From a virus, in UHGV virus genome UHGV-0124552: a stretch of 16,824 nucleotides of DNA; one strand, 5' to 3'. The notes below the pieces were generated by a model, which was not told where the DNA came from, made no database searches, and saw nothing but the letters and a program-made list of their open reading frames with translations. How positions within the stretch are numbered: position 1 is the first letter of the stretch; every line of letters starts with the position of its first letter. This document shows positions 2,624 to 16,824 of this stretch, in pieces. Made by a program: the position numbers and the translations under genes.

Positions 2624-2845
2624 ATGAGACCTAACATTTCAATCACTCTTACCACGCCTCATGTGACTATTGAACGCTATAGCGAGCTGACAGGACTGTC
2701 CATCGATACCATCAATGACATGTTGGCTGATGGACGCCTTATCCGTCACCGTTTGCGCAAAGATAAAAAACGCGAAAAAGTGATGATCAACATAGCAGCC
2801 ATGACCGTTGATGCGCTTTCAGAATGCAATCTAAACCTTAATTAG
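2624..2845 (+). CDS. apl: Apl/Cox-like excisionase and transcriptional regulator
   Basis: 73-aa ORF that is first in the rightward operon and divergent from cI, immediately followed by a cII homologue; this is the position of apl in 186 and cox in P2. GAGGA RBS 10 nt upstream. Confidence 0.6.
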
Positions 2846-2877
2846 TTCGATTCTGAAATACATCAGAGGCATTGACC

Positions 2878-3387
2878 ATGTTTGATTACCAAGTTTCCAA
2901 ACATCCACATTTTGATGAAGCCTGTCGTGCATTTGCACTGCGCCACAATCTGGTGCAACTGGCAGAACGTGCAGGCATGAATGTGCAGATTCTGCGGAAC
3001 AAGCTGAACCCAGCTCAGCCTCATTTATTAACCGCACCAGAAATCTGGCTGCTTACCGATCTGACTGAAGATTCAACGCTGGTAGATGGTTTTCTGGCAC
3101 AGATTCACTGCCTGCCATGTGTACCGATTAATGAGGTTGCAAAAGAGAAACTGCCGCATTACGTCATGAGCGCAACTGCAGAGATCGGACGTGTTGCAGC
3201 AGGTGCGGTATCTGGTGATGTAAAAACTAGTGCCGGTCGTCGTGATGCTATCAGCAGCATTAACTCTGTAACACGACTGATGGCGCTGGCTGCTGTTTCA
3301 TTGCAGGCCCGTTTACAGGCTAATCCTGCGATGGCGAGTGCAGTTGATACCGTGACTGGCCTCGGTGCTTCATTCGGTTTGCTGTGA
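2878..3387 (+). CDS. cII: 186 CII-like lysogeny establishment regulator
   Basis: 169 aa from ATG 2878 (GAGG RBS 8 nt upstream); same size and position as 186 CII. The track start at 2872 is TTG. Confidence 0.6.
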
Positions 3388-3394
3388 GGTGCTT

Positions 3395-3595
3395 ATGCTG
3401 ACGAAAGAACCATCATTTGCATCGCTGCTGGTAAAACAAAGCCCGGCAATGCACTACGGTCACGGCTGGATCATGGGTGAGGATGGTAAACGCTGGCATC
3501 CGTGCCGTTCACAAGATGAATTGCTGGCAGAACTATCTACGAAAAAACGGGGGAACAAATGGCTATTGAAGGCGCTGCGGCGACTGTTCCATTAA
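3395..3595 (+). CDS. Small early-operon protein (66 aa), hypothetical; position equivalent to 186 fil / P2 orf78
   Basis: ATG at 3395 follows the cII stop with GAGGTG just upstream. The track ORF begins at GTG 3365, inside cII. Confidence 0.5.
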   Translation: MLTKEPSFASLLVKQSPAMHYGHGWIMGEDGKRWHPCRSQDELLAELSTKKRGNKWLLKALRRLFH

Positions 3596-3900
3596 GCCCC
3601 GGTGAACGCCTGAATGGACTTAATCACATAGCGGAATTAAGGGCAAAAGTTTTTGGCCTGAATATTGAGTCAGAGCTTGAGCGGTTTATTAAAGATATGC
3701 GTGATCCACGGGATATCAATAACGAACAAAATAAACGAGCACTGGCAGCCATATTCTTTATGGCAAAAATTCCGGCTGAACGTCATAGCATCAGCATCAA
3801 TGAGCTGACCACTGACGAAAAGCGGGAGTTGATTAAAGCAATGAATCATTTTCGTGCAGTGGTGAGCTTATTTCCCAGACGGCTAACCATGCCGAATTAA
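3559..3900 (+). CDS. Hypothetical early phage protein (113 aa)
   Basis: ATG at 3559 with GGGGG RBS 5 nt upstream. Overlaps the previous ORF by 37 nt in another frame. Confidence 0.5.
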   Translation: MAIEGAAATVPLSPGERLNGLNHIAELRAKVFGLNIESELERFIKDMRDPRDINNEQNKRALAAIFFMAKIPAERHSISINELTTDEKRELIKAMNHFRAVVSLFPRRLTMPN

Positions 3901-4428: not shown

Positions 4429-5282
4429 GCACCATCCTGAAATGGGCGGGAAATAAAACCGCCATTATGTCCGAACTGAAAAAACACCTTCCTGCTGGCC
4501 CGCGACTGGTTGAACCTTTCGCGGGTTCCTGTGCTGTGATGATGGAGACGGATTACCCCAGCTATCTGGTTGCGGATATTAATCCTGATTTAATCAACCT
4601 CTATAAAAAGGTTGCCGCTGATTGTGAATCGTTTATATCTCGCGCCAGAGTTTTATTTGAGATCGCAAACAGGGAGGTGGTTTATTACAACATAAGGCAG
4701 GAGTTTAATTACTCCACTGAAATTACTGATTTCATGAAAGCGGTATATTTCCTGTATCTCAATCGTCACGGTTACCGTGGTTTATGTCGCTATAACAAGA
4801 GCGGGCATTTCAACATTCCCTACGGTAATTATAAAAATCCGTATTTCCCTGAAAAAGAAATTCGCGCATTTGCAGAAAAGGCCCAGCGAGCAACGTTTAT
4901 CTGCGCCAGCTTTGATGAAACGCTGGCGATGTTGAAGGCGGGGGATGTGGTGTATTGCGATCCGCCGTATGACGGTACGTTTTCCGGCTATCACACTGAC
5001 GGCTTCACTGAAGATGACCAGTATCACCTGGCATCTGTTCTTGAACATCGGTCATCAGAAGGACATCCGGTCATTGTTTCTAACAGTGACACATCCCTGA
5101 TCCGTTCGCTGTATCGCAATTTTACTCACCACTACATCAAGGCAAAACGCAGCATCGGTGTGGCAGCTGGCGAGGGTAAATCAGCAACAGAAATCATTGC
5201 TGTTTCCGGGCCGCGCTGCTGGGTGGGATTTGATTATTCGCGTGGCGTGGATAGTTCTGCCGTGTACGGAGTACGTGCATGA
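4425..5282 (+). CDS. dam: DNA N6-adenine methyltransferase (Dam-like)
   Basis: N-terminal LKWAGNK and catalytic CDPPYDG (DPPY motif). GGAGG RBS 7 nt before ATG 4425. Stop overlaps the gpA start (ATGA). Confidence 0.85.
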
Positions 5283-7693
5283 GTCATGCCGATATGAACA
5301 ACTGCTGCGGCTTTAACGAGGCTGCCGCAGCATTCTCATGGAACAGCCCGAAAAAGGCCATTAACCCTTATCTGGACCCGGCGGAAGTTGCGCCGGTTTC
5401 TACGCTTTCAAACCTGATCACTCTGTACGCTGCCGATAACGAGCAGGAACAGTTGCGCCGCGAGGCACTGAGTGATCAGGTCTGGGAGCGTTATTTCTTT
5501 AATGAATCACGTGATCCTGTCCAGCGCGAAATGGAGCAGGATAAGCTCATTAGCCGGGCAAAGCTGGCGCATGAGCAGCAGCGTTTTAATTCAGACATGG
5601 TCATTCTGGCGGACGTCAACGCCCAGCCTTCCCATATCAGCAAGCCGCTGATGCAACGTATTGAATACTTCAGCAGCCTGGGCAGGCCAAAGGCTTATTC
5701 CCGCTATTTACGTGAGACGATTAAGCCATGTCTGGAACGACTGGAGCATGTACGCGACAGTCAGCTATCTGCATCTTTTCGCTTTATGGCAAGCCATGAA
5801 GGGCTGGATGGCCTGCTGATCCTGCCTGAAATGAGTCAGGATCAGGTGAAACGCCTGTCCACCCTGGTAGCTGCGCATATGAGTATGTGCCTTGATGCAG
5901 CTTGTGGTGATTTGTATGCCACCGATGACGTTAAGCCAGAAGAAATCCGCAAGACATGGGAAAAGGTGGCAGCGGAAACCCTGCGTCTGGATGTCATCCC
6001 ACCTGCGTTTGAGCAACTCCGTCGGAAAAGAAACCGCCGTAAACCCGTGCCCTATGAACTCATTCCGGGTTCGCTGGCGCGTATGTTGTGCGCCGACTGG
6101 TGGTATCGGAAATTATGGAAGATGCGTTGCGAATGGCGGGAAGAGCAGTTGCGCGCTGTTTGCCTGGTCAGCAAAAAAGCATCTCCTTATGTCAGCTATG
6201 AAGCCGTGATGCATAAACGTGAGCAGCGCCGTAAGTCGCTGGAGTTTTTCCGTTCTCATGAACTGGTGAACGAAGACGGCGACACGCTGGACATGGAGGA
6301 TGTGGTAAACGCCAGCAGCAGCAACCCTGCGCATCGCCGCAATGAGATGATGGCCTGTGTTAAAGGTCTGGAGCTTATCGCGGAAATGCGCGGTGACTGC
6401 GCCGTTTTCTACACTATCACCTGTCCGTCGCGTTTCCATTCCACGCTAAATAACGGCAGACCAAACCCGACCTGGACAAACGCGACGGTAAGACAAAGCA
6501 GCGATTATCTGGTCGGCATGTTTGCTGCATTTCGTAAGGCGATGCACAAAGCCGGGTTGCGCTGGTATGGCGTGCGGGTGGCTGAGCCGCATCATGATGG
6601 CACAGTTCACTGGCACCTGTTGTGTTTCATGCGCAAAAAAGACCGCCGTGCCATCACTGCATTACTGCGTAAGTTTGCCATCCGTGAAGACCGCGAGGAG
6701 CTGGGCAATAACACTGGGCCGCGCTTTAAGTCTGAGTTGATTAACCCGCGCAAAGGAACGCCGACAAGCTACATCGCGAAATATATCAGTAAGAACATTG
6801 ACGGTCGTGGTCTGGCTGGCGAGATCAGCAAGGAAACGGGTAAATCTCTGCGTGATAACGCTGAATACGTGAATGCCTGGGCGTCTCTGCATCGTGTTCA
6901 GCAATTCCGCTTCTTTGGTATTCCGGGGCGTCAGGCTTACCGTGAACTTCGCTTGCTGGCTGGTCAGGCGGCAAGGCAACAGGGTGACAAAAAAGCAGGT
7001 GCGCCGGTACTGGATAACCCGCGTCTTGATGCCATTCTGGCTGCTGCTGATGCTGGTTGTTTTGCCACCTACATCATGAAGCAGGGCGGCGTACTGGTTC
7101 CCCGTAAATATCACCTCATCAGAACCGCTTATGAAATCAACGAAGAGCCGACCGCCTATGGCGATCACGGCATTCGTATTTATGGCATCTGGTCACCCAT
7201 TGCAGAGGGCAAGATCTGCACTCATGCAGTGAAGTGGAAAATGGTTCGTAAAGCCGTTGACGTTCAGGAGGCGGCAGCCGACCAGGGCGCTTGCGCCCCT
7301 TGGACTCGTGGCAATAACTGTCCCCTTGCTGAAAATTTGTACCAACAAGGGAAAGACAAATCAGCTGATGGGGATACCAGAACGGATATCACCCGTATGG
7401 ATGACAAGGAGTTGCACGATTACCTGCACAGTATGAACAAAAAAGAACGCCGGGAACTGGCTGCAAGGTTACGCCTGGTGAAACCGAAACGGCGTAGAGA
7501 CTACAAACAGCGAATTACAGACCATCAACGACAGCAGCTCGTCTATGAACTGAAGTCCAGAGGATTTGACGGCAGCGAGAAAGAGGTCGATTTACTCCTT
7601 CGCGGCGGCAGCATTCCGTCAGGAGCAGGCCTGCGTATTTTCTATCGGAACCAGCGTTTGCAGGAAGATGATAAGTGGCGGAACCTGTATTAA
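5279..7693 (+). CDS. A: P2 gpA-family rolling-circle replication initiation endonuclease
   Basis: 804 aa, with HUH-type motif VHWHLLCF and active-site tyrosine motif YIAKYISKN. Last gene of the early operon. Confidence 0.85.
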
Positions 7694-7785
7694 TTACGCG
7701 GATTAACAATTCGTGCTCTTAATAATACCAGGCATATCAGGCTGATGAACGTAAAAAAACGTTTTACATCAGTAAGATTATTATA

Positions 7786-7805
7786 TACTGTAAATATAAA
7801 CAGTG
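7786..7805 (+). promoter_or_regulatory. LexA (SOS) box overlapping a candidate promoter for the downstream Tum/DinI-like genes
   Basis: TACTGTAAATATAAACAGTG fits the CTGT-N8-ACAG LexA consensus (TACTGTATATATATACAGTA) very closely. Possible -35 TTTACA (7763-7768) and -10 TATACT (7784-7789). Confidence 0.7.
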
Positions 7806-7846
7806 GTTATGTATACAGTATTGCTTGTGGTGTCATAGGAGGAAAG

Positions 7847-8035
7847 ATGCAGGACTATTTTTTGGAGTCTTTGAAGCTCCAACGCATTGATTTTTTTCTT
7901 AAGCTTGTAGCGGCTAGTGAGTGTAGTGATGAAGAGAAGGGGCTGGCCCTGCAGTGGGTTTCTGAATTGACAGATGAACTCATGGCAAAAATCAGAAGCC
8001 ACGAATACAACCGCTCAATGGATGTCATCAGCTGA
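7847..8035 (+). CDS. Small SOS-controlled protein (62 aa), possibly the N-terminal antirepressor part of a split 186 Tum-like protein
   Basis: GGAGG RBS 5-6 nt before ATG 7847, directly downstream of the LexA box. Followed within 10 nt by a DinI-like ORF. Confidence 0.45.
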   Translation: MQDYFLESLKLQRIDFFLKLVAASECSDEEKGLALQWVSELTDELMAKIRSHEYNRSMDVIS

Positions 8036-8045
8036 GGGGACTTTT

Positions 8046-8279
8046 ATGCGCATTGAAATAATGATCGATAAAGAGCAGAAGATTAGCCAGTCTATCCTAG
8101 ACGCCCTTGAATCAGAGCTTTACCGCAATCTGCGCCCCCTGTATCCCAAAACGGTAATTCGTATCCGTAAAGGTAGCTCTAACGGTGTGGAACTGACCGG
8201 ACTGCAACTGGACGAAGAAAGGAAACAAGTGATGAAAATTATGCAGAAGGTGTGGGAAGACGACAGCTGGCTGCATTAA
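8046..8279 (+). CDS. DinI/Tum/MsgA-family protein (DinI-like)
   Basis: MRIEIMIDK ... ILDALESEL ... KVWEDDSW aligns by eye to E. coli DinI (MRIEVTIAK ... IDALAGEL ... ETWESADDW). GAGGGG RBS 6 nt upstream. Confidence 0.7.
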   Translation: MRIEIMIDKEQKISQSILDALESELYRNLRPLYPKTVIRIRKGSSNGVELTGLQLDEERKQVMKIMQKVWEDDSWLH

Positions 8280-8663
8280 GAAACGTTGCTGGCGTCTGAA
8301 CTTGCTTCTGGCGTCAGCAAGGTTGAACAACGAGCTATGCGAGGCGTTAGCCATCTGATCAAAAGACATCAAATATCATATTGTATATCGTGGTCAAACG
8401 CTGGAAACAATCATTCCCGATCAGAGGGGCTTCTTTCAATGTCCAAAAGAGTGAGATAGAGGATACAGGATGGGAAGAGCTTTTGATTAATTATCGTCCA
8501 AGTTTTTCAAAAGCTTCTTATCTGGCGGTCGATACATGATTTACTGTTGGATATGGTATTTAAAATTAATCTTTACACTGTGGTATATGCAGAATAGGAT
8601 ATTATCAATACAATCAAACTGTTTTCATACGGTTATTAATATTGCAATGTTATAGGTAATGTC

Positions 8664-9782
8664 ATGTATCTTTTCAAGTATTACCGTCCGGACTTCTTCT
8701 TCGAGAAAGCTATTCGTTATAATGAATTATATTTTTCCGCTCCTGCGCAATTGAATGATCCCAATGATCTCAATATAGATTATCGCTTCGATAATAAATT
8801 GAAATTATGGGATATTTTATTGCGTTCTCCTTGCGATAAATCCTATAAAAATTTGAGTCACATATTGGATTTGAGTAATTTGAAAATACATAAGGGATTG
8901 AATCGTATTTTTAGAGGAAAAAAAATAAAAAGTAGCATTGAGTCATTAGATAGCCTGTTCGACTCACACGTTGATGAGATACGTAAGATCATAGATGATG
9001 GTTTACTACCTATCAATGTGATTAATTCTGCTATTTATGGAAATATTCCTGAACCACGCCAATATTTGGTTTCACTTTGCGAGAACAGTATCAAAGAAAG
9101 GTTGTATAGGAAAATAGTTCCTGCAGTATTCAGTGTGTCATTTTCAGCTAATGCGTTAGATCGTATGATGTGGGCGCATTATGCTGCTGGCTTTAGTGGT
9201 TGTGTTGTGATTTATGAAACGCAGGATTTTAATATTGATGGTATACCCTATACTGGAATGAAGCTAAGAGAAAATTTATTTTCATCAGATAAATTTAATT
9301 TTCCAGTTAAGCCAATAAAATATAGTAATCAGGCTAAAGAGGTTTCACTTCTAGACCCAAGCGCAAATGTTGCAGAGTTATTTTTAACTAAAAATAGATT
9401 TTGGAGATATGAAGCTGAATATCGAATGTTTATTCCGGAGGCAAATGCAGGAATAGGGAGTGAGCGGCATGTTCAAAGACGCGTAAATCGAAATATTGGA
9501 CATATTTTTCATCATGATGCTAATGTTGTTAAAGGGATCATTTTTGGTCCTAGAATGTGTGAAATGAAAAAAGAAAGCATATGGAATTGTATCAAGTCAA
9601 ATATGGAGAATTCAAATTCAACAATATGTTATTTTTTTGACTCTGAGTTATCAGCATCAGGAAAGATTACTATTTCAAAAGGGCAACGAGCGGAAAAAAT
9701 GAAAAATTTCACTTTGTTCAGGAACAAGTTAAGTCAGACGGAAATGGCTAAAGTTTTGAAGGAAATTGGCATTACGAACTAA
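8664..9782 (+). CDS. DUF2971-like protein (372 aa) of unknown function; candidate single-gene defence/abortive-infection protein
   Basis: N-terminal YRPDFFFEKAIRYNELYFSAPAQLNDPND, central VFSVSFSANALDRMMWAHYAAGFSGCVVIY and C-terminal KNRFWRYEAEYRMF match the motif pattern I associate with DUF2971. Very AT-rich, preceded by about 380 bp of AT-rich non-coding DNA and followed by a terminator. Confidence 0.6.
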   Translation: MYLFKYYRPDFFFEKAIRYNELYFSAPAQLNDPNDLNIDYRFDNKLKLWDILLRSPCDKSYKNLSHILDLSNLKIHKGLNRIFRGKKIKSSIESLDSLFDSHVDEIRKIIDDGLLPINVINSAIYGNIPEPRQYLVSLCENSIKERLYRKIVPAVFSVSFSANALDRMMWAHYAAGFSGCVVIYETQDFNIDGIPYTGMKLRENLFSSDKFNFPVKPIKYSNQAKEVSLLDPSANVAELFLTKNRFWRYEAEYRMFIPEANAGIGSERHVQRRVNRNIGHIFHHDANVVKGIIFGPRMCEMKKESIWNCIKSNMENSNSTICYFFDSELSASGKITISKGQRAEKMKNFTLFRNKLSQTEMAKVLKEIGITN

Positions 9783-9848
9783 CCTAACAACAGTGCATGC
9801 CTATGCTGCCTGAATTTGCATGACCGTTTGAGGATCGTTTTTGCTAAG

Positions 9849-9875
9849 GCCCGCCAGAACTGGCGGGCTTTTGCG
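9849..9875 (+). terminator. Rho-independent terminator after the DUF2971-like gene
   Basis: GCCCGCCA (9849-9856), loop gaac, TGGCGGGC (9861-9868), then TTTTGCG. Confidence 0.65.
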
Positions 9876-9917
9876 TGGATCAGGCACCTGCATGAAAACC
9901 ACTACACAAAGCGGGCA

Positions 9918-9936
9918 GGCGTGGCGGGGATACGAG
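9918..9936 (+). other. cos: cos-like sequence (possible cohesive-end site or remnant of a P2/186-type phage)
   Basis: GGCGTGGCGGGGATACGAG matches the remembered 186 cos GGCGTGGCGGGGAAAGCAT in the first 13 nt (15 of 19 overall). It lies in a short GC-rich island between two AT-rich insertions, in the same orientation relative to Q as P2 cos. Confidence 0.4.
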
Positions 9937-10007
9937 CGCGCGCAGCGGGTGGAAACTCAGATTTGAATGTTGTATAAAAGATGGGATCATTCTGAGGAAA
10001 AGTGGAT

Positions 10008-10913
10008 ATGAAAAAGAAAACTATTCCGGAGTTGCAGAAGCAAAATCTGGCAAATTTAATTAAAAGTCGGCTTTTTCAACAGAAAAATAAAAATAAAGTT
10101 ACTGTTTTCCTTTGCGGGGGCGATTTGAATGATCCGTTTTTTTGTAGAAATAAAGTTAAAAGAGTGTTGGAAACACATCCCAAAATAGAAATATTCTATC
10201 CTGAGGAGTTGTTTGATGAGCTTTTGTATGGACAAGGTCAGCATAGTCTTTTAAGTTTGGAGAATATTTTAGCTGATTCAGTCGATGTTATTATTATTAT
10301 TCCTGAAAGCCCAGGGTCTTTCGCTGAATTGGGCGCATTTTCAAATAATGAAAAACTGTGCAAAAAAATGATATGTCTTCAGGATGACAAATTCAAACTT
10401 AAAAAAAGCTTTCTTAATTATGGGCCTATAAAACTGCTTCGGCGTGCTAATAGCGGTGCAGTATTGCGAGGAGATTTGTCGACTCTTGAAAGCTTGAGTA
10501 CAGGTAAAGCTTTTTATAATAGAATTATAAAAAGTATTAATGACATCAAAAAAAATAACCCAGTTAATCACTCAATAGATAATATTCTTCACGCTCGGCG
10601 TTTTATACTGCCATGTATATATTTGATGGATGGTATAGATAATATACTTCTATATGAGCTATTACATTTGGTGACTAAGAAAGATGCTATTCTTTGTGAA
10701 ATTATCGTTAAGTCTGTTATTTCAAGCTTGATTAAAGAGTCAATAATTAGGCGTTCAGTTCAAGGATACCATATTACAGAAATTGGTATGCAATACGTTC
10801 TTGAGCATTTTGATCGAAAGGCTTTGGACAATCTACGACTGGATATGATGAACTTCGAAAATCGTGGTAAAACAATACTCCACTATGATAGGATGCGTTT
10901 TGCGCACCCTTAG
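10008..10913 (+). CDS. Retron effector: nucleoside 2-deoxyribosyltransferase-like (NDT-like) protein, as in the Ec86 (Retron-Eco1) family
   Basis: VFLCGG ... VIIIIPESPGSFAELGAFS resembles the NDT-like fold motif with a catalytic Glu. Its stop codon lies inside the retron a1 repeat, immediately upstream of msr-msd and the RT. GAGGA RBS 9 nt before ATG 10008; the track start at 10002 is GTG. Confidence 0.65.
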   Translation: MKKKTIPELQKQNLANLIKSRLFQQKNKNKVTVFLCGGDLNDPFFCRNKVKRVLETHPKIEIFYPEELFDELLYGQGQHSLLSLENILADSVDVIIIIPESPGSFAELGAFSNNEKLCKKMICLQDDKFKLKKSFLNYGPIKLLRRANSGAVLRGDLSTLESLSTGKAFYNRIIKSINDIKKNNPVNHSIDNILHARRFILPCIYLMDGIDNILLYELLHLVTKKDAILCEIIVKSVISSLIKESIIRRSVQGYHITEIGMQYVLEHFDRKALDNLRLDMMNFENRGKTILHYDRMRFAHP

Positions 10914-11061
10914 CGAGTGGCTTCTCCGGAAGTTCACTGGACAGTGTTTCGCTGTCCTACATACAATCTGAAGTTTTACCAGTTCCCTCATTGAAAGGAG
11001 AACATCTCCCGATGTTCTCCTTTCACTTCGGAATCTGATTTTTATGACGTAAGGGTGCGCT
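10901..11061 (+). ncRNA. msr-msd: Retron msr-msd non-coding RNA (template/primer for msDNA), Ec86-like
   Basis: Inverted repeats a1 TGCGCACCCTTA (10901-10912) and a2 TAAGGGTGCGC (11050-11060). The 5' 17 nt TGCGCACCCTTAGCGAG and the 3' TGACGTAAGGGTGCGC are identical to the Ec86 ncRNA as I remember it. msr hairpin GGACAG-tgtttcg-CTGTCC (10939-10957). Long msd hairpin GAAAGGAGAACATC-tccc-GATGTTCTCCTTTC (10993-11024). Confidence 0.75.
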
Positions 11062-11062
11062 C

Positions 11063-12037
11063 ATGACTTCCGCAACACCATCTCAGGTTTTTCGCTTACG
11101 CAATCTTGGATTGCCTGTTATGTCCTCTTTAGAGGATATGTCTAGAGAAATGCGTTTATCAGTAGACATACTCCGGTTGTACATTTATCGTGCTGACAAA
11201 TACTATAAGGTTTATTCGTTGCCAAAAAGAGATGGCAAGAGATCCCGCATCATTTCACAGCCATCACGTGAGCTGAAGGCATTGCAAGCTTGGGTGTTAA
11301 GAAACATCCTTGATAAGTTACATTCATCCCCATTTTCCAAAGGCTTTGAAAAAGGGCAATCAATATTAAATAATGCCAGCCCACATGTAGGAGCTAACTA
11401 TGTATTAAATATTGATTTAGAAGATTGTTTTAATACTATTCTGATAGAGAAAATCTATACTGTTTTTCATTCTCTGGGGTATAACTCTACTATTTCTAAT
11501 GCTTTAGCAAGATTGTGTTCATTTAATGGTTCGCTACCTCAAGGTGCACCATCTTCTCCAAAGATTGCGAATCTTGTTTTAACTAAATTAGATTATAGAA
11601 TACATGGATATGCAGGTAGTAAGGGGATCGTATTTACTCGATATGCCGATGATTTGACTTTATCTGCTCAATCTTTAAAAAAAATACTTAAAGCTAAGTC
11701 ATTTGTATGCTCTATAATACCAAGTGAATCTTTGAAGGTTAATTATAATAAAGTTGCGATTCATGGCCCCAAAGCAAGGAAGGAGGTTACTGGGCTCGTT
11801 TTATCTATTGATAATGTTGGAGTTGGCAGAATACGTTATCGCGAAATTAGAAGTAAGATCCATTATCTGGCGGTAAAAAGAAATTCTGATTTCGAACATG
11901 TTAAAGGACTTATTGCGTTTGTTAAAAGTGTAGACAAGAAAAACTATAGAAAATTGATGACTTTCTCAAATAAAATGTCTGAAGCATATGGGGTTGATCT
12001 AAGTGTTCTTTTTCCTAAAAACAAAAAGGCCATTTAA
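11063..12037 (+). CDS. ret: Retron reverse transcriptase (Ec86 / Retron-Eco1-like)
   Basis: N-terminus FRLRNLGLPVM and QPSRELKALQAWVLRNILDKL closely resemble Ec86 RT (from memory). Also QGAPSSPKIANL, the catalytic YADD (RYADDLTLSA) and the retron-specific VTG motif (KEVTGLVL). Start codon abuts the a2 repeat. Confidence 0.85.
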   Translation: MTSATPSQVFRLRNLGLPVMSSLEDMSREMRLSVDILRLYIYRADKYYKVYSLPKRDGKRSRIISQPSRELKALQAWVLRNILDKLHSSPFSKGFEKGQSILNNASPHVGANYVLNIDLEDCFNTILIEKIYTVFHSLGYNSTISNALARLCSFNGSLPQGAPSSPKIANLVLTKLDYRIHGYAGSKGIVFTRYADDLTLSAQSLKKILKAKSFVCSIIPSESLKVNYNKVAIHGPKARKEVTGLVLSIDNVGVGRIRYREIRSKIHYLAVKRNSDFEHVKGLIAFVKSVDKKNYRKLMTFSNKMSEAYGVDLSVLFPKNKKAI

Positions 12038-12052: not shown

Positions 12053-13081
12053 TTAGGTAATTGAATAACTCACGAAATTAATAACTTCTTCATTTATCCA
12101 TTCGTTCAGCTCTTCTAGTCTTTTTTGTAAAGGGATGAGTTCATTCCTCACAAAAACATTAGCAGCTTTCTCTACATCCCCAAACCCCCCAATATTATTC
12201 GGCATGATCCCCATCATCTGCGGCGGCACGCGGTGCGCAGCCATCATGTCATCCCGGCTCACGTTCTTGATATTCAGAAACTCATCCTTCGCCGCGACTT
12301 CTGACAATGGGATGATCTGAAGTCCGTCCTTTTTGCCGTTAGGCGAGTACATAAACAGATTGCGGAAGTTACCTGGTCCTTTGGCGCTTTTCATCGTATT
12401 GCGGAGGTTGTTCACATCCTCCTGGTTCTGCGCAGCATCGGTCATGTACATGATGAAGCCTGCATGACTGCCGTTAATGTAATACTTGCGGCGGAACAGC
12501 GTGGCGGACTCGTTGAGCAGAGCTGACGGAATGGCAGAAAGATAACCGGGCAGGCCGTAGATCTCCTGGTTAATGTCCGGTTCCATCAGATGAAAAATGC
12601 TGCCTTTCGTGAACTGATACGGCTGGGTTGTCATACCGTATTGCACAAACCAGTAGGTATCCAGGTCTAACCCGCGTCGGGTGTATTTTGCCAGTGCAGG
12701 CTCAAGGGCGATAACTTCACCGAAGCGGTTCGTGCGTTTCTCCAGGTAGGCGTTACCAAAAACCAGATAGTCCTGCACAAAACGCGAAAAAGCCTGCTGG
12801 CTGAGTAGCGGGTGAGGGATGTAGGTGCTGGTCAGAATGTTGCATTTCACCGCAATTGGTGAACTGTGATGCACGGCAGCGCGGAAGGTGCGCGCCAGTC
12901 CGTCAAAGCTGACAGGAGGCTCATACCAGCGATCTGTCTGTACGCATTCCACATAGTCCAGCAGTTCGCGGCGGTCAAGTACAGGAACGGGATCACCGAA
13001 GCTGAATGCTTCGGCTGAAGTCTGGCTTTTATGCTTGAGCTGATTCGTCGCCGCAGCGCGGTTTTTCTTAATCTTTCCCAT
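12053..13081 (-). CDS. Q: Portal protein (P2 gpQ-like)
   Basis: About 342 aa, size and sequence style of P2 gpQ. Convergent with ret and divergent from O, as in P2. ATG at 13081 overlaps the P stop (ATGA). The last ~25 codons (12053-12130) are AT-rich, unlike the rest of the gene. Confidence 0.8.
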   Translation of the reverse strand: MGKIKKNRAAATNQLKHKSQTSAEAFSFGDPVPVLDRRELLDYVECVQTDRWYEPPVSFDGLARTFRAAVHHSSPIAVKCNILTSTYIPHPLLSQQAFSRFVQDYLVFGNAYLEKRTNRFGEVIALEPALAKYTRRGLDLDTYWFVQYGMTTQPYQFTKGSIFHLMEPDINQEIYGLPGYLSAIPSALLNESATLFRRKYYINGSHAGFIMYMTDAAQNQEDVNNLRNTMKSAKGPGNFRNLFMYSPNGKKDGLQIIPLSEVAAKDEFLNIKNVSRDDMMAAHRVPPQMMGIMPNNIGGFGDVEKAANVFVRNELIPLQKRLEELNEWINEEVINFVSYSIT

Positions 13082-14847
13082 CAAAAAATCTCCACAATAT
13101 TGCTGGTATTGGCGGATTCGCCCTGCAGCGGTTCGTTAAACAATGCGTGCATCGTTGCCCAGGCCAGATCGGCGTGGCTGGCTTCTTCGCTGCGGCTGGC
13201 TTCATAGGTCGGGCGGTTGCCGCTGGCGGTGGTGGCGCGACGGATTGCCATGAATGACTGCGCAATGTCGCTGTGCCCGGCGTCAAACTCCAGACGGCGG
13301 TGGCTGATAATGTCGTAGGCCTTGAGTACCAGAGCGTTTTTAACGTTGGGGTTGTAGACAAACTCCCGGACGGCTGGAAAAAACGCTTTCACGTTCTCAT
13401 AAACTCCGTGACCGACACCCGTCGAGTCGATGCCGATATATGTCACGTTGTACTGTTCGGTCAGTTTTTTGATGGCGTCCGCCTGGGCGCGGAAGTCCAT
13501 CCCGCGCCACTGGTGGCGCTCAAGAATACGGAACTTACCGCCCGGCACGGCTGGCGGTGCCACCACCACGCATCCGGCGCTGTCGCCGTTCTGCGTACCT
13601 TTTGCCGGGTCATAACCGATCCACACTTCGCGCCACCCAAACGGGCGAAGGGCCAGTGCATGAAAGTCGGTCCAGACTTCCCAGCTGTCCACCATGCACG
13701 CCTGCAGCTCGCTGAGCGGAAACACGGACGCGAGATCGTCCACAAACTCGCACATCAGCAGGTTCTGGTATTCGTCCGGGCTGTACTCCATGCGTAGTTG
13801 GTCGAGGTCGAACAGGTTACAGCCGCCGCGCACCGCATCTTCCACGGTGACTATCTGGCGGTATTGCCCGTCTGCGCACAGCAGGCCGGGGGCCAGATTG
13901 CTGTGGGACAGGTCGATGTCCACCTTGTCGGCTTTGTTGCGTCCACGGTTGAACAGCGCACCGGACCAGAACGGATAAGCACTGTGGGTCAGGCTGGATG
14001 GCGTGGAAAAATAGGTTTGTCGCCATTTTTTGTGAATAGCCATACCGGAAGCCACTTTGCGCAGCTCCTGGAATTTCGGTATCCAGAAATATTCATCCAG
14101 ATACAGGTTGCCGTGGTAACTCTGGGCAGTGCGGGCATTGGTGCCGAGGAAATACAGTGTGGCCCCGTTGGGAAGCACCATCGGATCGCCTTTCAGCTCC
14201 ACTTCCACTTCTTTGGCGAAGTCGATGATGTACTGCTTAAAGACGTGCGCCTGTGCCTTACTGGCAGAAAGGAAAATCTGGTTACGTCCGGTTAGCAGGG
14301 CGTCAATCAGGGCTTCACGGGCAAAATAGAAGGTCGCGCCGATCTGGCGTGACTTCAGCAGGTTGCGGATGCGGTTGGTTTTTCCGGCTTCCCACCAGTG
14401 ACGCTGGTAGTTGAACATGGAGGAATGGAAGATTTCTTCCAGCTTCTCAATCTGTTCATCGGTGAAAACATTCTTTTCAGGCTGACGGCGCGGGCCTTTG
14501 TTGCGGTTGGCGACGTTAGGGTTTAAATCGGCTTCGTTGCCGCCATTGTTAAACTTGCCGATCCGCGCGTGGCGCTCCGACTGGCGCGCCAGCAGATCAA
14601 TTTCTTTGAAATCTTTCCCTTCTTTGTGCTCCTTCATAATGAGCTGGCAGTAACGTGCGGCGGTGGTGAGCTGCATCTGATCCAGCGGCCCATAGTCACC
14701 CCACTTGTCGCGTTTTTTCCAGCTGTGAACGGTTGCAACTTTCTCGCCCAGCATTTCAGCAATGCGGGCTACGCGGTATCCCTGAAAGTACAGCAGCATG
14801 GCCTGCCGACGGGGATCGAGATCTGCGGGTGTCAGTGTGGTGTTCAT
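13081..14847 (-). CDS. P: Terminase large (ATPase) subunit (P2 gpP-like)
   Basis: 588 aa (P2 gpP is about 590). N-terminus LDPRRQAMLLYFQGYRVARIAEMLG resembles gpP. Upstream of Q on the same strand. Confidence 0.85.
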   Translation of the reverse strand: MNTTLTPADLDPRRQAMLLYFQGYRVARIAEMLGEKVATVHSWKKRDKWGDYGPLDQMQLTTAARYCQLIMKEHKEGKDFKEIDLLARQSERHARIGKFNNGGNEADLNPNVANRNKGPRRQPEKNVFTDEQIEKLEEIFHSSMFNYQRHWWEAGKTNRIRNLLKSRQIGATFYFAREALIDALLTGRNQIFLSASKAQAHVFKQYIIDFAKEVEVELKGDPMVLPNGATLYFLGTNARTAQSYHGNLYLDEYFWIPKFQELRKVASGMAIHKKWRQTYFSTPSSLTHSAYPFWSGALFNRGRNKADKVDIDLSHSNLAPGLLCADGQYRQIVTVEDAVRGGCNLFDLDQLRMEYSPDEYQNLLMCEFVDDLASVFPLSELQACMVDSWEVWTDFHALALRPFGWREVWIGYDPAKGTQNGDSAGCVVVAPPAVPGGKFRILERHQWRGMDFRAQADAIKKLTEQYNVTYIGIDSTGVGHGVYENVKAFFPAVREFVYNPNVKNALVLKAYDIISHRRLEFDAGHSDIAQSFMAIRRATTASGNRPTYEASRSEEASHADLAWATMHALFNEPLQGESANTSNIVEIF

Positions 14848-14989: not shown

Positions 14990-15883
14990 ATGACAGTGAA
15001 AGCAAAGCGTTTTCGCATCGGGGTGGAAGGTGCCACCACCGACGGACGCGAAATCCAGCGTGAATGGCTGGAACAGATGGCAGCCAGCTACAACCCGGCG
15101 GTGTATACCGCGCTGATTAACCTTGAGCACATCAAGTCTTATCTGCCGGACAGCACCTTTAACCGCTACGGCAAGGTGACGGCGCTGTTTGCTGAAGAAA
15201 TCACGGAAGGTCCGCTGGCAGGCAAGATGGCGCTGTATGCCGACGTTGAGCCAACAGAGTCCCTGGTGGAGCTGGTGAAAAAAGGCCAGAAATTATTCAC
15301 CTCTATGGAAGTCAGCCCAAAGTTTGCTGATACGGGCAAAGCCTACCTGGTCGGGCTGGCTGCCACTGATGACCCTGCCAGTCTGGGCACTGAAATGCTG
15401 ACATTCAGCGCCAGTGCAGCCCATAACCCGCTGGCAAACCGCAAGCAGAATCCCGCCAATCTCTTTACCGCCGCAGAGGAAACGGTGATCGAACTGGAAG
15501 AAATCCAGGAGGACAAGCCGTCCCTGTTTGCCCGCGTCACGGCGCTGTTCACCAAAAAAGAGCAGTCCGACGATGCCCGGTTCTCTGATGTGCATAAGGC
15601 CGTGGAGCTGGTCGCCACTGAGCAGCAGAACCTGAGCGCACGGACCGAAAAATCCCTGTCTGAGCAGGAAGAACGTCTGTCTGAGCTGGAGACTGCCCTG
15701 CAGGCACAGCAGACCGCCTTTAACGAACTGGTGAATAAGCTGAGTCATGAAGACAGCCGCCAGGACTACGCGAAGCTGACCATCAATGGTGAGGTGCTCT
15801 ATGAAGTGGACCTTATCAACATGGTGGAAATTGTGGACGGTGTGGACCTGATGGAAGCGCACCGCAACGCCCTCGGCCTCTGA
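14990..15883 (+). CDS. O: Capsid scaffolding protein (P2 gpO-like)
   Basis: FRIGVEGATTDGREI ... INLEH ... TSMEVSPKFADTGKAYLVGLAATDDPASLGTE ... ASDDARFSDVH aligns by eye along the length of remembered P2 gpO. GGAG RBS 8 nt upstream. Confidence 0.85.
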   Translation: MTVKAKRFRIGVEGATTDGREIQREWLEQMAASYNPAVYTALINLEHIKSYLPDSTFNRYGKVTALFAEEITEGPLAGKMALYADVEPTESLVELVKKGQKLFTSMEVSPKFADTGKAYLVGLAATDDPASLGTEMLTFSASAAHNPLANRKQNPANLFTAAEETVIELEEIQEDKPSLFARVTALFTKKEQSDDARFSDVHKAVELVATEQQNLSARTEKSLSEQEERLSELETALQAQQTAFNELVNKLSHEDSRQDYAKLTINGEVLYEVDLINMVEIVDGVDLMEAHRNALGL

Positions 15884-15894
15884 TATATCTGAAC

Positions 15895-15912
15895 GGCGCG
15901 GGATACCGCGCC
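15895..15912 (+). other. GC-rich hairpin in the short O to E' spacer (possible terminator or deletion-junction landmark)
   Basis: GGCGCGG-gata-CCGCGCC. No T-run follows, so not a canonical intrinsic terminator. Confidence 0.3.
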
Positions 15913-15937
15913 AGAACCCAATTGACAGGACAGCAAA

Positions 15938-16080
15938 ATGAGCGATAAGCAGACTGAAAAGACCATTCAACTGGATACCCCCATCAAGCGCGGTAAAACA
16001 GAAATCACCGAAATTGTGCTGCGTAAACCGCAGTCCGGTGCGCTGCGCGGTACACGCCTGCAGGCCATTATGGATACCTG
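15938..16080 (+). pseudogene. Truncated tail assembly chaperone gpE-like N-terminal fragment (E')
   Basis: First ~47 aa (TIQLDTPIKRGKTEITEIVLRKPQSGALRGTRLQAIMD) fit the gpE-type tail assembly chaperone pattern. Beyond about 16080 the frame reads into unrelated residues before stopping at 16246. Confidence 0.5.
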
Positions 16081-16383
16081 GTGGGTACGGATGAAAACGT
16101 GCTGGTACTTAATCGCACTTATGCCAACCGGAGCAACGCTGAACGGGCAGCGAAAATGCAGTGGGAACGCCTGCAACGCGGCGTTGCGTCATTCTCGCTA
16201 CAACTGGCGGAAGGGCGGGCAGATCTCTACACAGAAATGCCTGTGAAGGTCAGTGGCTTTAAACAGCCGATAGATGATGCGGAATGGACCATTACGACTC
16301 TGACGCATACCGTCAGCCCGGATAACGGTTTTACGACCAGTCTGGAGCTTGAAGTGAGGATTGATGATTTCGAAATGGAATGA
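16081..16383 (+). pseudogene. C-terminal fragment of tail protein gpD (D')
   Basis: ERAAKMQWERLQRG ... RADLYTEMPVKVSGFK ... GFTTSLELEV resembles the C-terminus of P2 gpD (from memory). It lacks the ~290 N-terminal residues and is out of frame with the upstream E' fragment. Confidence 0.55.
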
Positions 16384-16473
16384 TTCTTCGCAATGGAGAA
16401 CTTTTAAGTTTGCAAAATGGAATAATGCGGTATCATTATTGTGAATTTAGCAAAAATGGGGAGAGCTCGAAAA

Positions 16474-16692
16474 ATGATGATTTGCCCACTGTGTGGAAGT
16501 GCCGCCCATACTCGCAGCAGTTTTCAGGTATCTTCATTGACCAAAGAGCGTTACAACCAGTGCCAGAACATTAACTGCAGCCATACTTTTGTTACCCATG
16601 AAACTTTTGTTCGTTCGATTGCAACGCCAAAAGAGTCAAATCCGGTTCAGCCGCATCCAATGAAATCAGGACAGGTGGCGCTCTCTCTTTGA
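16474..16692 (+). CDS. ogr: Ogr-family zinc-finger late gene transcriptional activator
   Basis: 72 aa; CPLCGSAAHTRSS ... KERYNQCQNINCSHTF ... RPHP closely matches remembered P2 Ogr (CPLCQHAAHARTS ... KERYHQCQNVNCSATF ... RPHP). ATG at 16474; the track start at 16441 is GTG. Confidence 0.9.
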   Translation: MMICPLCGSAAHTRSSFQVSSLTKERYNQCQNINCSHTFVTHETFVRSIATPKESNPVQPHPMKSGQVALSL

Positions 16693-16715
16693 CGCTGCCG
16701 CCATTTTGTCGCCAT
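16693..16715. repeat. attR: attR core: right copy of the 23-bp imperfect direct repeat CGCTGCCGCCATTTTGTCGCCAT
   Basis: 21 of 23 identical to 148-170. Begins immediately after the ogr stop codon. Confidence 0.6.
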
Positions 16716-16778
16716 CGTTAAAGAATAGTGCTTCTAACATCATGATTTTAAACAGCTTAAATTTCAGACAACAAAAAA

Positions 16779-16821
16779 CCCATCAACCTTGAACCGAAAT
16801 GGCGGGGTTGATGGGCTCCAC
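16779..16821 (-). terminator. Rho-independent terminator-like hairpin in the right flank
   Basis: cccatcaacc (16779-16788) pairs with ggttgatggg (16806-16815) across a 17-nt loop. On the - strand the stem is followed by TTTTTTGTTG. The loop is long, so confidence is moderate. Confidence 0.35.
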
Positions 16822-16824
16822 AAA

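Follow-up and report, generated by a model that had tools for sequence, protein, structure and literature searches.

The window analysed here, that is, the whole 16,824-nucleotide stretch of UHGV virus genome UHGV-0124552, belongs to a P2-like Escherichia coli prophage and carries, between the phage genes gpA and gpQ, a gene for a 372-amino acid (aa) protein of the DUF2971 family (PDC-S31 in PADLOC) with a predicted ADP-ribosyltransferase (ART) fold. On its 5' side, gpA is followed by a phrog_698 open reading frame (ORF) and a DinI-like gene that ends at position 8279; on its 3' side come a cos-like 19-mer, the effector and reverse transcriptase (RT) genes of a retron, and then the phage genes Q (portal) and P (terminase). 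The DUF2971 gene and the early operon B-A point in the same direction. Comparison with Escherichia phage 500465-1, a P2-like phage that lacks the gene, revealed that its positions 2746-3495 and 3501-3658 are collinear with positions 7601-8351 and 9792-9950 of the window, and that only 5 bp lie between them where the window has 1,440 bp. Thus, the gene resides in an inserted cassette bounded at 8352 and 9791, in which an AT-rich leader of 312 bp precedes the ORF and 9 bp follow it. As the initial annotation had proposed, the gene stands alone in the gpA-to-cos slot that holds tin and old in P2, being the sole gene of the cassette between the DinI-like gene and cos. In P2, tin and old are accessory prophage cargo located between A/orf91 (DinI-like) and cos that exclude other phages; Old is an ATPase-TOPRIM nuclease, and Tin targets the single-stranded DNA-binding protein of T-even phages. 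The window gene shares with them the slot and a presumed exclusion role, but the proteins are unrelated, that of the window having the predicted ART fold.

The three motifs by which the gene had been recognized, YYRPDFFFEKAIRYNELYFSAPAQLNDP, SVSFSANALDRMMWAHYA and FWRYEAEYR, are all present in the 372-aa protein, and the coordinates and the ATG start assigned to the ORF were also found. The GC content is 0.334 in the ORF and 0.336 in the cassette, compared with 0.529 in gpA and 0.542 in the Q-P genes, which agrees with the proposal of a strongly AT-rich gene in a backbone of about 50% GC (33% vs ~53%). Across five orthologues with 98-63% protein identity, the ratio of nonsynonymous to synonymous substitution rates (dN/dS) was 0.09-0.17, indicating purifying selection; the ORF is therefore a real gene under selection. 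The cassette is a horizontally acquired, AT-rich, single-gene cargo of the P2 hotspot. The features of the locus are collected in Table 1.

Table 1. Coordinates of the DUF2971 cassette, its candidate functional sites and neighbouring features in the window
Feature	Position	Strand	Remarks
DUF2971 cargo cassette, 1,440 bp	8352-9791	+	insertion relative to empty-slot P2-like phage
AT-rich leader, 312 bp	8352-8663	+	inside inserted cassette; moves together with the gene
Candidate sigma-70 promoter, TTTACA-17-TAGGAT	8572-8600	+	promoter-like site 9/12; weak evidence
DUF2971 / PDC-S31 protein, predicted ART fold	8664-9782	+	ATG start, 372 aa
K5-Y6-Y7-R8, candidate ART motif I (basic residue), predicted beta1	8676-8687	+	strand 2-8 in model
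S157-V-S159-F-S161, candidate ART motif II (S-x-S)	9132-9146	+	strand 155-161 in model
Helix MWAHY after the S-x-S strand	codons 9168-9182	+	helix 167-173 in model
E250-A-E252, candidate ART motif III (E-x-E)	9411-9419	+	E252 opens strand 252-258 in model
P2-like backbone 3' of cassette	9792-9942	+	bounds the slot, not cargo; stem-loop and cos-like 19-mer
GC-rich stem-loop	9849-9875	+	within backbone 9792-9950 common to P2-like phages without the gene
cos-like 19-mer GGCGTGGCGGGGATACGAG	9918-9936	+	likeness to P2/186/P4 cos region
gpA	5279-7693		Phage_GPA match, E 1e-127
Retron effector, St85 family / NDT II-A	10002-10913		
Candidate retron msr-msd non-coding RNA	10901-11061	+	150-nt gap between effector and RT
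Retron RT	11063-12037		
gpQ (portal)	12053-13084	-	terminase P likewise on minus strand
gpE fragment	15938-16246		
gpD fragment	16081-16383		
ogr	16441-16692		
Host small RNA gene rybB	16770-16824	-	cut by window end

RefSeq annotates the product as a DUF2971 domain-containing protein. The Pfam DUF2971 profile (PF11185) matched the window protein just below threshold (E 5e-4, 21.7 bits vs a curated cut-off of 22) and over aa 169-255 only, and NCBIfam gave no match for it. The DUF2971 match was recovered in all 43 homologues (best E 1e-8), four PADLOC models of PDC-S31 matched the protein (the best, PDLC04990, at E 1e-23 over aa 3-312), and the signature residues of the family (NDP, S-F-S, MWxHY and K...W.YE.E.R) are all present, which upholds the original DUF2971 assignment. 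Moreover, each of the 100 divergent relatives tested matched PDC-S31, and the protein matched PHROG 1762, a group of unknown function, at E 3e-29. An exhaustive profile search retrieved 6,870 representatives (50% identity) at E <= 1e-3 and 23 at E <= 1e-30; thus, the full-length form of ~370 aa constitutes a small subfamily of a large family.

Structural modelling predicts an ART fold for the protein, with DarT, Tpt1 and scabin as the nearest structural relatives and DarT as the nearest solved one, a prediction that supersedes the earlier remark that no enzymatic signature was obvious. A study published in 2025 also predicted that DUF2971 is an ART resembling DarT and AbiGi (PMC12522546). At the level of sequence, HMMER profiles of 43 and 100 family members searched against all PDB sequences reached no ART and no DarT; Pfam at E <= 10 returned no second domain and no ART-clan family, nor any DarT/DUF4433 match, for the 43 homologues, and PADLOC gave no DarT/DUF4433 match at E <= 0.1.

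The candidate motifs come in the model in an order (a basic residue in beta1, S-x-S on a strand that leads into a helix, and E-x-E ahead of a further strand) that would correspond to the cholera-toxin-type R-S-E ART layout. The K5-Y6-Y7-R8 segment would represent ART motif I: K5 and R8 do not vary across the 43 aligned subfamily sequences, and in a set of 134 divergent relatives, 125 have R or K at position 5 and 90 have R at position 7. In the second candidate motif, residue 159 is mostly S (115 of these 134 sequences) and sometimes C (18), F160 is found in 121 and S161 in 110, and W170 and Y173 in the helix that follows are (near-)invariant. In the third, E250 and E252 are invariant in the 134 representatives, and R254 is kept in 133. 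Over the whole protein, comparison with 100-134 divergent relatives (~20% identity) identified D32, Y173, G179, Y220, K243, E250 and E252 as invariant, and E21, F24, N31, S159, W170, H172, W247, Y249, R254, G291 and G295 as at least 90% conserved. Conservation is concentrated in aa 1-40, 141-180, 241-260 and 281-300. The helical insert (aa 46-150) shows a mean entropy of 2.4 bits, compared with 0.9 bits for aa 1-45, and the C-terminal region (aa 297-372) is also variable. Such a pattern would fit a conserved catalytic core combined with fast-evolving recognition or regulatory parts.

An ART fold could also serve another chemistry, whether a Tpt1/KptA-like 2'-phosphotransferase, a nucleic-acid end-modifying enzyme or an NADase, with a part in RNA repair or metabolism or in abortive infection by NAD+ depletion. 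We regard this as improbable: although Tpt1 is among the nearest structures, the Tpt1 clade bears an H-H-h motif, as opposed to the invariant E-x-E and the S-x-S of the DUF2971 relatives, and the mobile, sporadic distribution described below speaks against housekeeping RNA repair. Separately, the segment at aa ~280-300 (nt ~9501-9563; 'HIFHHD...KGIIFGPRM') gave a recurrent sub-significant match to the metal-binding region of peptide deformylases (IFQHExDHLxG), and within the subfamily H284 is conserved at 90% or more. The likeness of 'RIFHH..G.IFGP' to deformylases stayed below threshold (E 0.15-2) and was rejected as a probable chance or short-motif match.

The cassette contains a single ORF of more than 57 aa; a second conserved ORF was not found in it, the only other candidates being of 21-57 aa, and it brings no partner gene, the neighbouring cargo changing freely. 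The leader belongs to the inserted cassette, so that the original view of a gene with its own leader stands. Nine of the 27 E. coli copies, which form a group ~98% identical, carry a ~120-bp insertion near position 8487 of the leader (locus L002, 6208-6322). This insertion breaks a candidate ORF of 52 aa, and since the 21-57-aa ORFs are not kept in the insertion variant, a hidden antitoxin or second gene in the cassette was rejected. A structured leader RNA was also rejected, its folding not being significant (z = -1.2), and Rfam gave no match in or around the cassette. Furthermore, the cassette and its flanks, in the window as in six other hosts, contain neither a DarG macrodomain gene nor a NADAR antitoxin gene.

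These results bear on the possibility that the protein serves as toxin in a prophage-stabilizing addiction or toxin-antitoxin module, whose antitoxin might be a small RNA or a peptide encoded in the 312-bp leader, with defence as an incidental effect. The module would be in keeping with DarT, the nearest structural relative, being the toxin of such a pair, with a long leader that moves together with the gene, and with the retention of the gene in a degraded prophage. However, the leader offers neither a conserved small ORF nor a significant fold, the macrodomain and NADAR partners are missing nearby, and Aristaios, a validated DUF2971 system introduced below, functions as a single cloned gene. 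We therefore consider this reading quite unlikely. The likeness to DarT itself has limits: whereas DarTG is a toxin-antitoxin pair, the window gene is without a DarG macrodomain or NADAR partner; the DarT site (R51/E160) is non-canonical, in contrast to the S-x-S and E-x-E of the window family; and ~240 of the 372 residues of the window protein fall outside the core aligned with DarT.

Downstream of the cassette, the segment 9792-9942 shows 88-92% identity in 87 P2-like phage records and is present in the empty-slot phage too. The stem-loop that the initial annotation had taken for the gene's own terminator lies in this conserved backbone and thus belongs to the phage and not to the cargo; the DUF2971 transcript could well end there all the same, although a consensus terminator scan did not call it. 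The 19-mer further downstream differs by 4-5 mismatches from the cos sequences of 186 and P2. By eye, its region can be aligned with the P4 cos sequence given in Table S2A of Rousset et al. (PMC9122126). Among different E. coli hosts of the cassette, similarity stops at 9942/9943, just beyond cos. Since cos lies between the DUF2971 gene and the retron, and host similarity ends at that point, the gpA-gpQ hotspot comprises two independently exchanging cargo slots, a DinI-cos slot, occupied here by the DUF2971 gene, and a cos-Q slot, occupied here by the retron.

The cassette was found in 27 of 5,426 complete E. coli genomes, with one copy each and always on the chromosome. The 25 copies listed in the search with flanks all cover these flanks completely and therefore lie between the same DinI-side and cos-side backbone. 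In the hosts of the cassette, the cos-Q slot holds a DUF262 protein, an AIPR protein, two hypothetical proteins with IS421, a DUF4145 protein or the retron; in the prophage of the 71% orthologue, it holds a HIRAN-protein pair. The retron occurs in four E. coli genomes, only two of which also carry the cassette, which confirms the original view that the two are separate. E. coli strain H1 shares this retron but has, in place of the cassette, two uncharacterised genes of 48 and 203 aa in its DinI-cos slot (locus L013, 3495-4298). The retron has its own effector and a candidate msr-msd non-coding RNA (ncRNA) bordered by the terminal inverted repeats GCGCACCCTTA and TAAGGGTGCGC, with a long hairpin at ~10992-11027; the predicted fold has an energy of -63.7 kcal/mol (z = -6.1), none of 200 shuffles being as stable, and the candidate has no match in Rfam. 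The gene order effector-ncRNA-RT seems unusual among retrons. The DUF2971 gene as an additional retron effector was rejected, given the intervening cos, the retron's own effector and ncRNA candidate, and the independent assortment of the two. For the same reasons, the DUF2971 gene is an autonomous single-gene module.

The prophage itself is a deleted remnant (window 14990-16824), in which the capsid, lysis and tail genes are missing and an in-frame fusion joins the scaffold gene O (GPO, aa 6-259) to the 38 C-terminal residues of the tail-tube protein FII. It keeps the integrase, the repressor, the replication genes and both cargo slots.

The initial annotation had suggested counting homologues in P2-like prophages and defence islands, and relatives do recur in such contexts. 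The 71% orthologue occupies the same P2 slot, one 63% orthologue lies in an AlpA-type island, and the 62% orthologue is cargo inside the conjugation module of an integrative and conjugative element (ICE). Another 63% orthologue, on the Lonsdalea chromosome (loci L018/L019, 1-7116), is a few genes away from a SIR2_2 and DUF87/HerA-like pair, together with transposases and integrase remnants, and looks like a member of a defence island. In lambdoid prophages, the 41% and 33% relatives are morons in opposite orientation, situated between the replication and Q-antiterminator modules. In the 41% case, from an E. coli lambdoid prophage (L005, 5807-11471; L006, 409-6073), a 617-aa DUF7380/EMARD_N gene lies upstream and GIY-YIG (LEM-3-like) and 411-aa HNH_2 genes lie downstream, which may represent a multi-system defence cluster in the lambdoid cargo region. 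One Pseudomonas relative resides in a small chromosomal islet. In addition, DUF2971 genes are annotated on 258 PLSDB plasmids, including NC_003385.1 of Salmonella Typhi CT18 (~106.5 kb) and ~110-kb Citrobacter plasmids. The ~106-kb S. Typhi replicons of the pHCM2 type we take to be phage-plasmids; if so, they would be another temperate-phage vehicle for DUF2971. This distribution fits what is expected of a mobile defence gene, an association and not a proof.

The same contexts can be set against the idea that the enzyme benefits the phage itself, much as the T4 Alt, ModA and ModB ARTs do, through host take-over, lysogenic conversion or anti-defence, and does not exclude other phages. The predicted fold and the conserved candidate catalytic residues would suit such an enzyme equally well, the gene is oriented as the early operon, and temperate phages of several unrelated types carry it. 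It is, however, accessory and equipped with its own leader, an empty-slot phage exists, orthologues are found outside phages in the ICE, the SIR2-HerA island and the Pseudomonas islet, the family occurs embedded in BREX, DISARM or restriction-modification (RM) loci, and the gene is kept in a deleted prophage unable to make virions. On this evidence, we hold a phage-benefiting role to be unlikely.

Still less credence can be given to a role in virulence, with the protein secreted to act on eukaryotic host cells, a function suggested for lpg1268, a DUF2971 protein of Legionella. Roughly 18% of the DUF2971 family are predicted effectors, with members in pathogenic E. coli, Salmonella and Vibrio (PMC12522546), and P2 hotspots at times carry cytolethal distending toxin (PMC9122126). 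Yet the effector idea is itself a prediction only, secretion-system genes and chaperones are absent from the flanks, the contexts are those of phage, ICE and defence-island cargo, and the host strains include environmental, river-water and commensal isolates, all of which make this the most improbable of the readings considered. Each of the four alternatives fits the context data less well than a defensive ART.

Part of what the initial annotation presented as new had been catalogued before. That anti-phage systems cluster in the gpA-gpQ hotspot of P2-like phages has been validated (Rousset et al. 2022, PMC9122126); for this hotspot, 'DUF2971' is listed as single-gene system 65, with 65 occurrences (Table S5B), and WP_021542067 appears in Table S5A. 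System 65 is the same protein as that of the window, bar a few residue differences, in the same gpA-gpQ hotspot, which these authors treat as one, whereas the cargo of the window falls into two slots split by cos. PDC-S31 is one of 145 candidates predicted in PADLOC through guilt-by-embedding in BREX, DISARM or type I RM loci (Payne et al., bioRxiv 10.1101/2024.01.29.577857); like the window gene it is a single-gene candidate and its models match the window protein, but it is a prediction only. The searchable literature yielded no mention of PDC-S31 by name and no paper citing the E. coli protein accessions. Lastly, Aristaios (pUCCL641_199), a 316-aa DUF2971 protein from a Lactococcus plasmid, is a validated single-gene system with an abortive infection-like phenotype that impairs Skunavirus transcription (Grafakou et al. 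2024, PMC11381338). Aristaios and the window protein have in common the family (PF11185 / IPR021352), the single gene on a mobile element and an AlphaFold model with an ART fold. They differ in size (316 vs 372 aa), in a subfamily-specific C-terminal region of ~50 aa present in the window protein, and in setting, a plasmid of a Gram-positive host as opposed to a P2-like E. coli prophage. Because DUF2971 was catalogued by Rousset et al. and PADLOC and has one validated distant member, Aristaios, the statement that it is not an established or named defence family is out of date. The family is already catalogued at this locus. The defence hypothesis is reasonable and gains a sharper mechanistic outline from the predicted ART fold, and the gene is chiefly of value as a tractable E. 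coli way into the mechanism of antitoxin-less DUF2971 ARTs.

In view of these results, we lean with modest confidence towards the window gene being stand-alone anti-phage (superinfection-exclusion) cargo encoding an NAD+-dependent ART of the DUF2971 / PDC-S31 family. The proposal of a candidate single-gene defence system thus retains its single-gene nature, its independence, its place as hotspot cargo and its defence-associated relatives, and loses the novelty of the family. Several points weigh against a defensive ART. The protein sequence is absent from the tables of tested systems in Rousset et al., where only 3 of 8 additional P2 hotspot systems were active and about one quarter of P2 hotspots carry non-defence cargo (PMC9122126), and no published phage-resistance phenotype was found for this or any enterobacterial DUF2971 protein. 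The link to Aristaios is that of a shared Pfam/InterPro family as reported (PMC11381338). The candidate R/K - SxS - ExE site proposed from our model differs from the 'modified H-Y-E' active site described for DUF2971 (PMC12522546). An ART that is toxic and has no antitoxin must be kept in check, and the means of doing so are postulated here. Finally, a search of 50,697 records detected no close homologue in isolated phages, a result that tells against the phage-benefiting alternative as well.

Under the defensive reading, we infer an enzymatic activity with its own target and trigger, a defence phenotype and possibly an abortive outcome. The gene would be expressed in the lysogen from its own AT-rich leader, in which the weak promoter-like site lies. 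As no antitoxin partner accompanies it, the protein is proposed to be kept inactive or harmless intramolecularly, through the variable helical insert and/or the C-terminal region. On infection by another phage, the core formed by the basic beta1 residue, S-x-S and E-x-E would transfer ADP-ribose from NAD+ to a target, most likely a nucleic acid, whether DNA or RNA and of phage or host origin, or else the transcription machinery; this preference is based on the nearest structures, which are DNA- or RNA-directed ARTs, and on the transcription phenotype of Aristaios. Phage gene expression or replication would consequently be blocked, possibly at the cost of the infected cell. A more specific version, which we put forward tentatively and regard as rather doubtful, is that the enterobacterial subfamily represents an antitoxin-free, self-restrained relative of DarT, in which one polypeptide both senses infection, by means of the helical insert and/or the C-terminal region, and ADP-ribosylates nucleic acid (phage DNA or transcripts), so that phage genes are no longer expressed.

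For the P2 hotspot, the present data refine the picture to two independently exchanging slots on either side of cos. If the gene gave no phenotype, it would be an ordinary accessory prophage gene of a catalogued family. If it protects E. coli, DUF2971 defence would extend from Aristaios, the only validated system, to enterobacterial prophages, and PADLOC candidate PDC-S31, with its thousands of members, would be validated; a tractable host and phage panel would then be at hand for asking how a potentially toxic ART defends without an antitoxin and what it modifies. The self-restrained version, if true, would introduce a new target or control logic among defensive ARTs, unlike that of the toxin-antitoxin pair DarTG and the chaperone-controlled CmdTAC, and would provide a tractable E. 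coli model for the mechanism of the Aristaios family.

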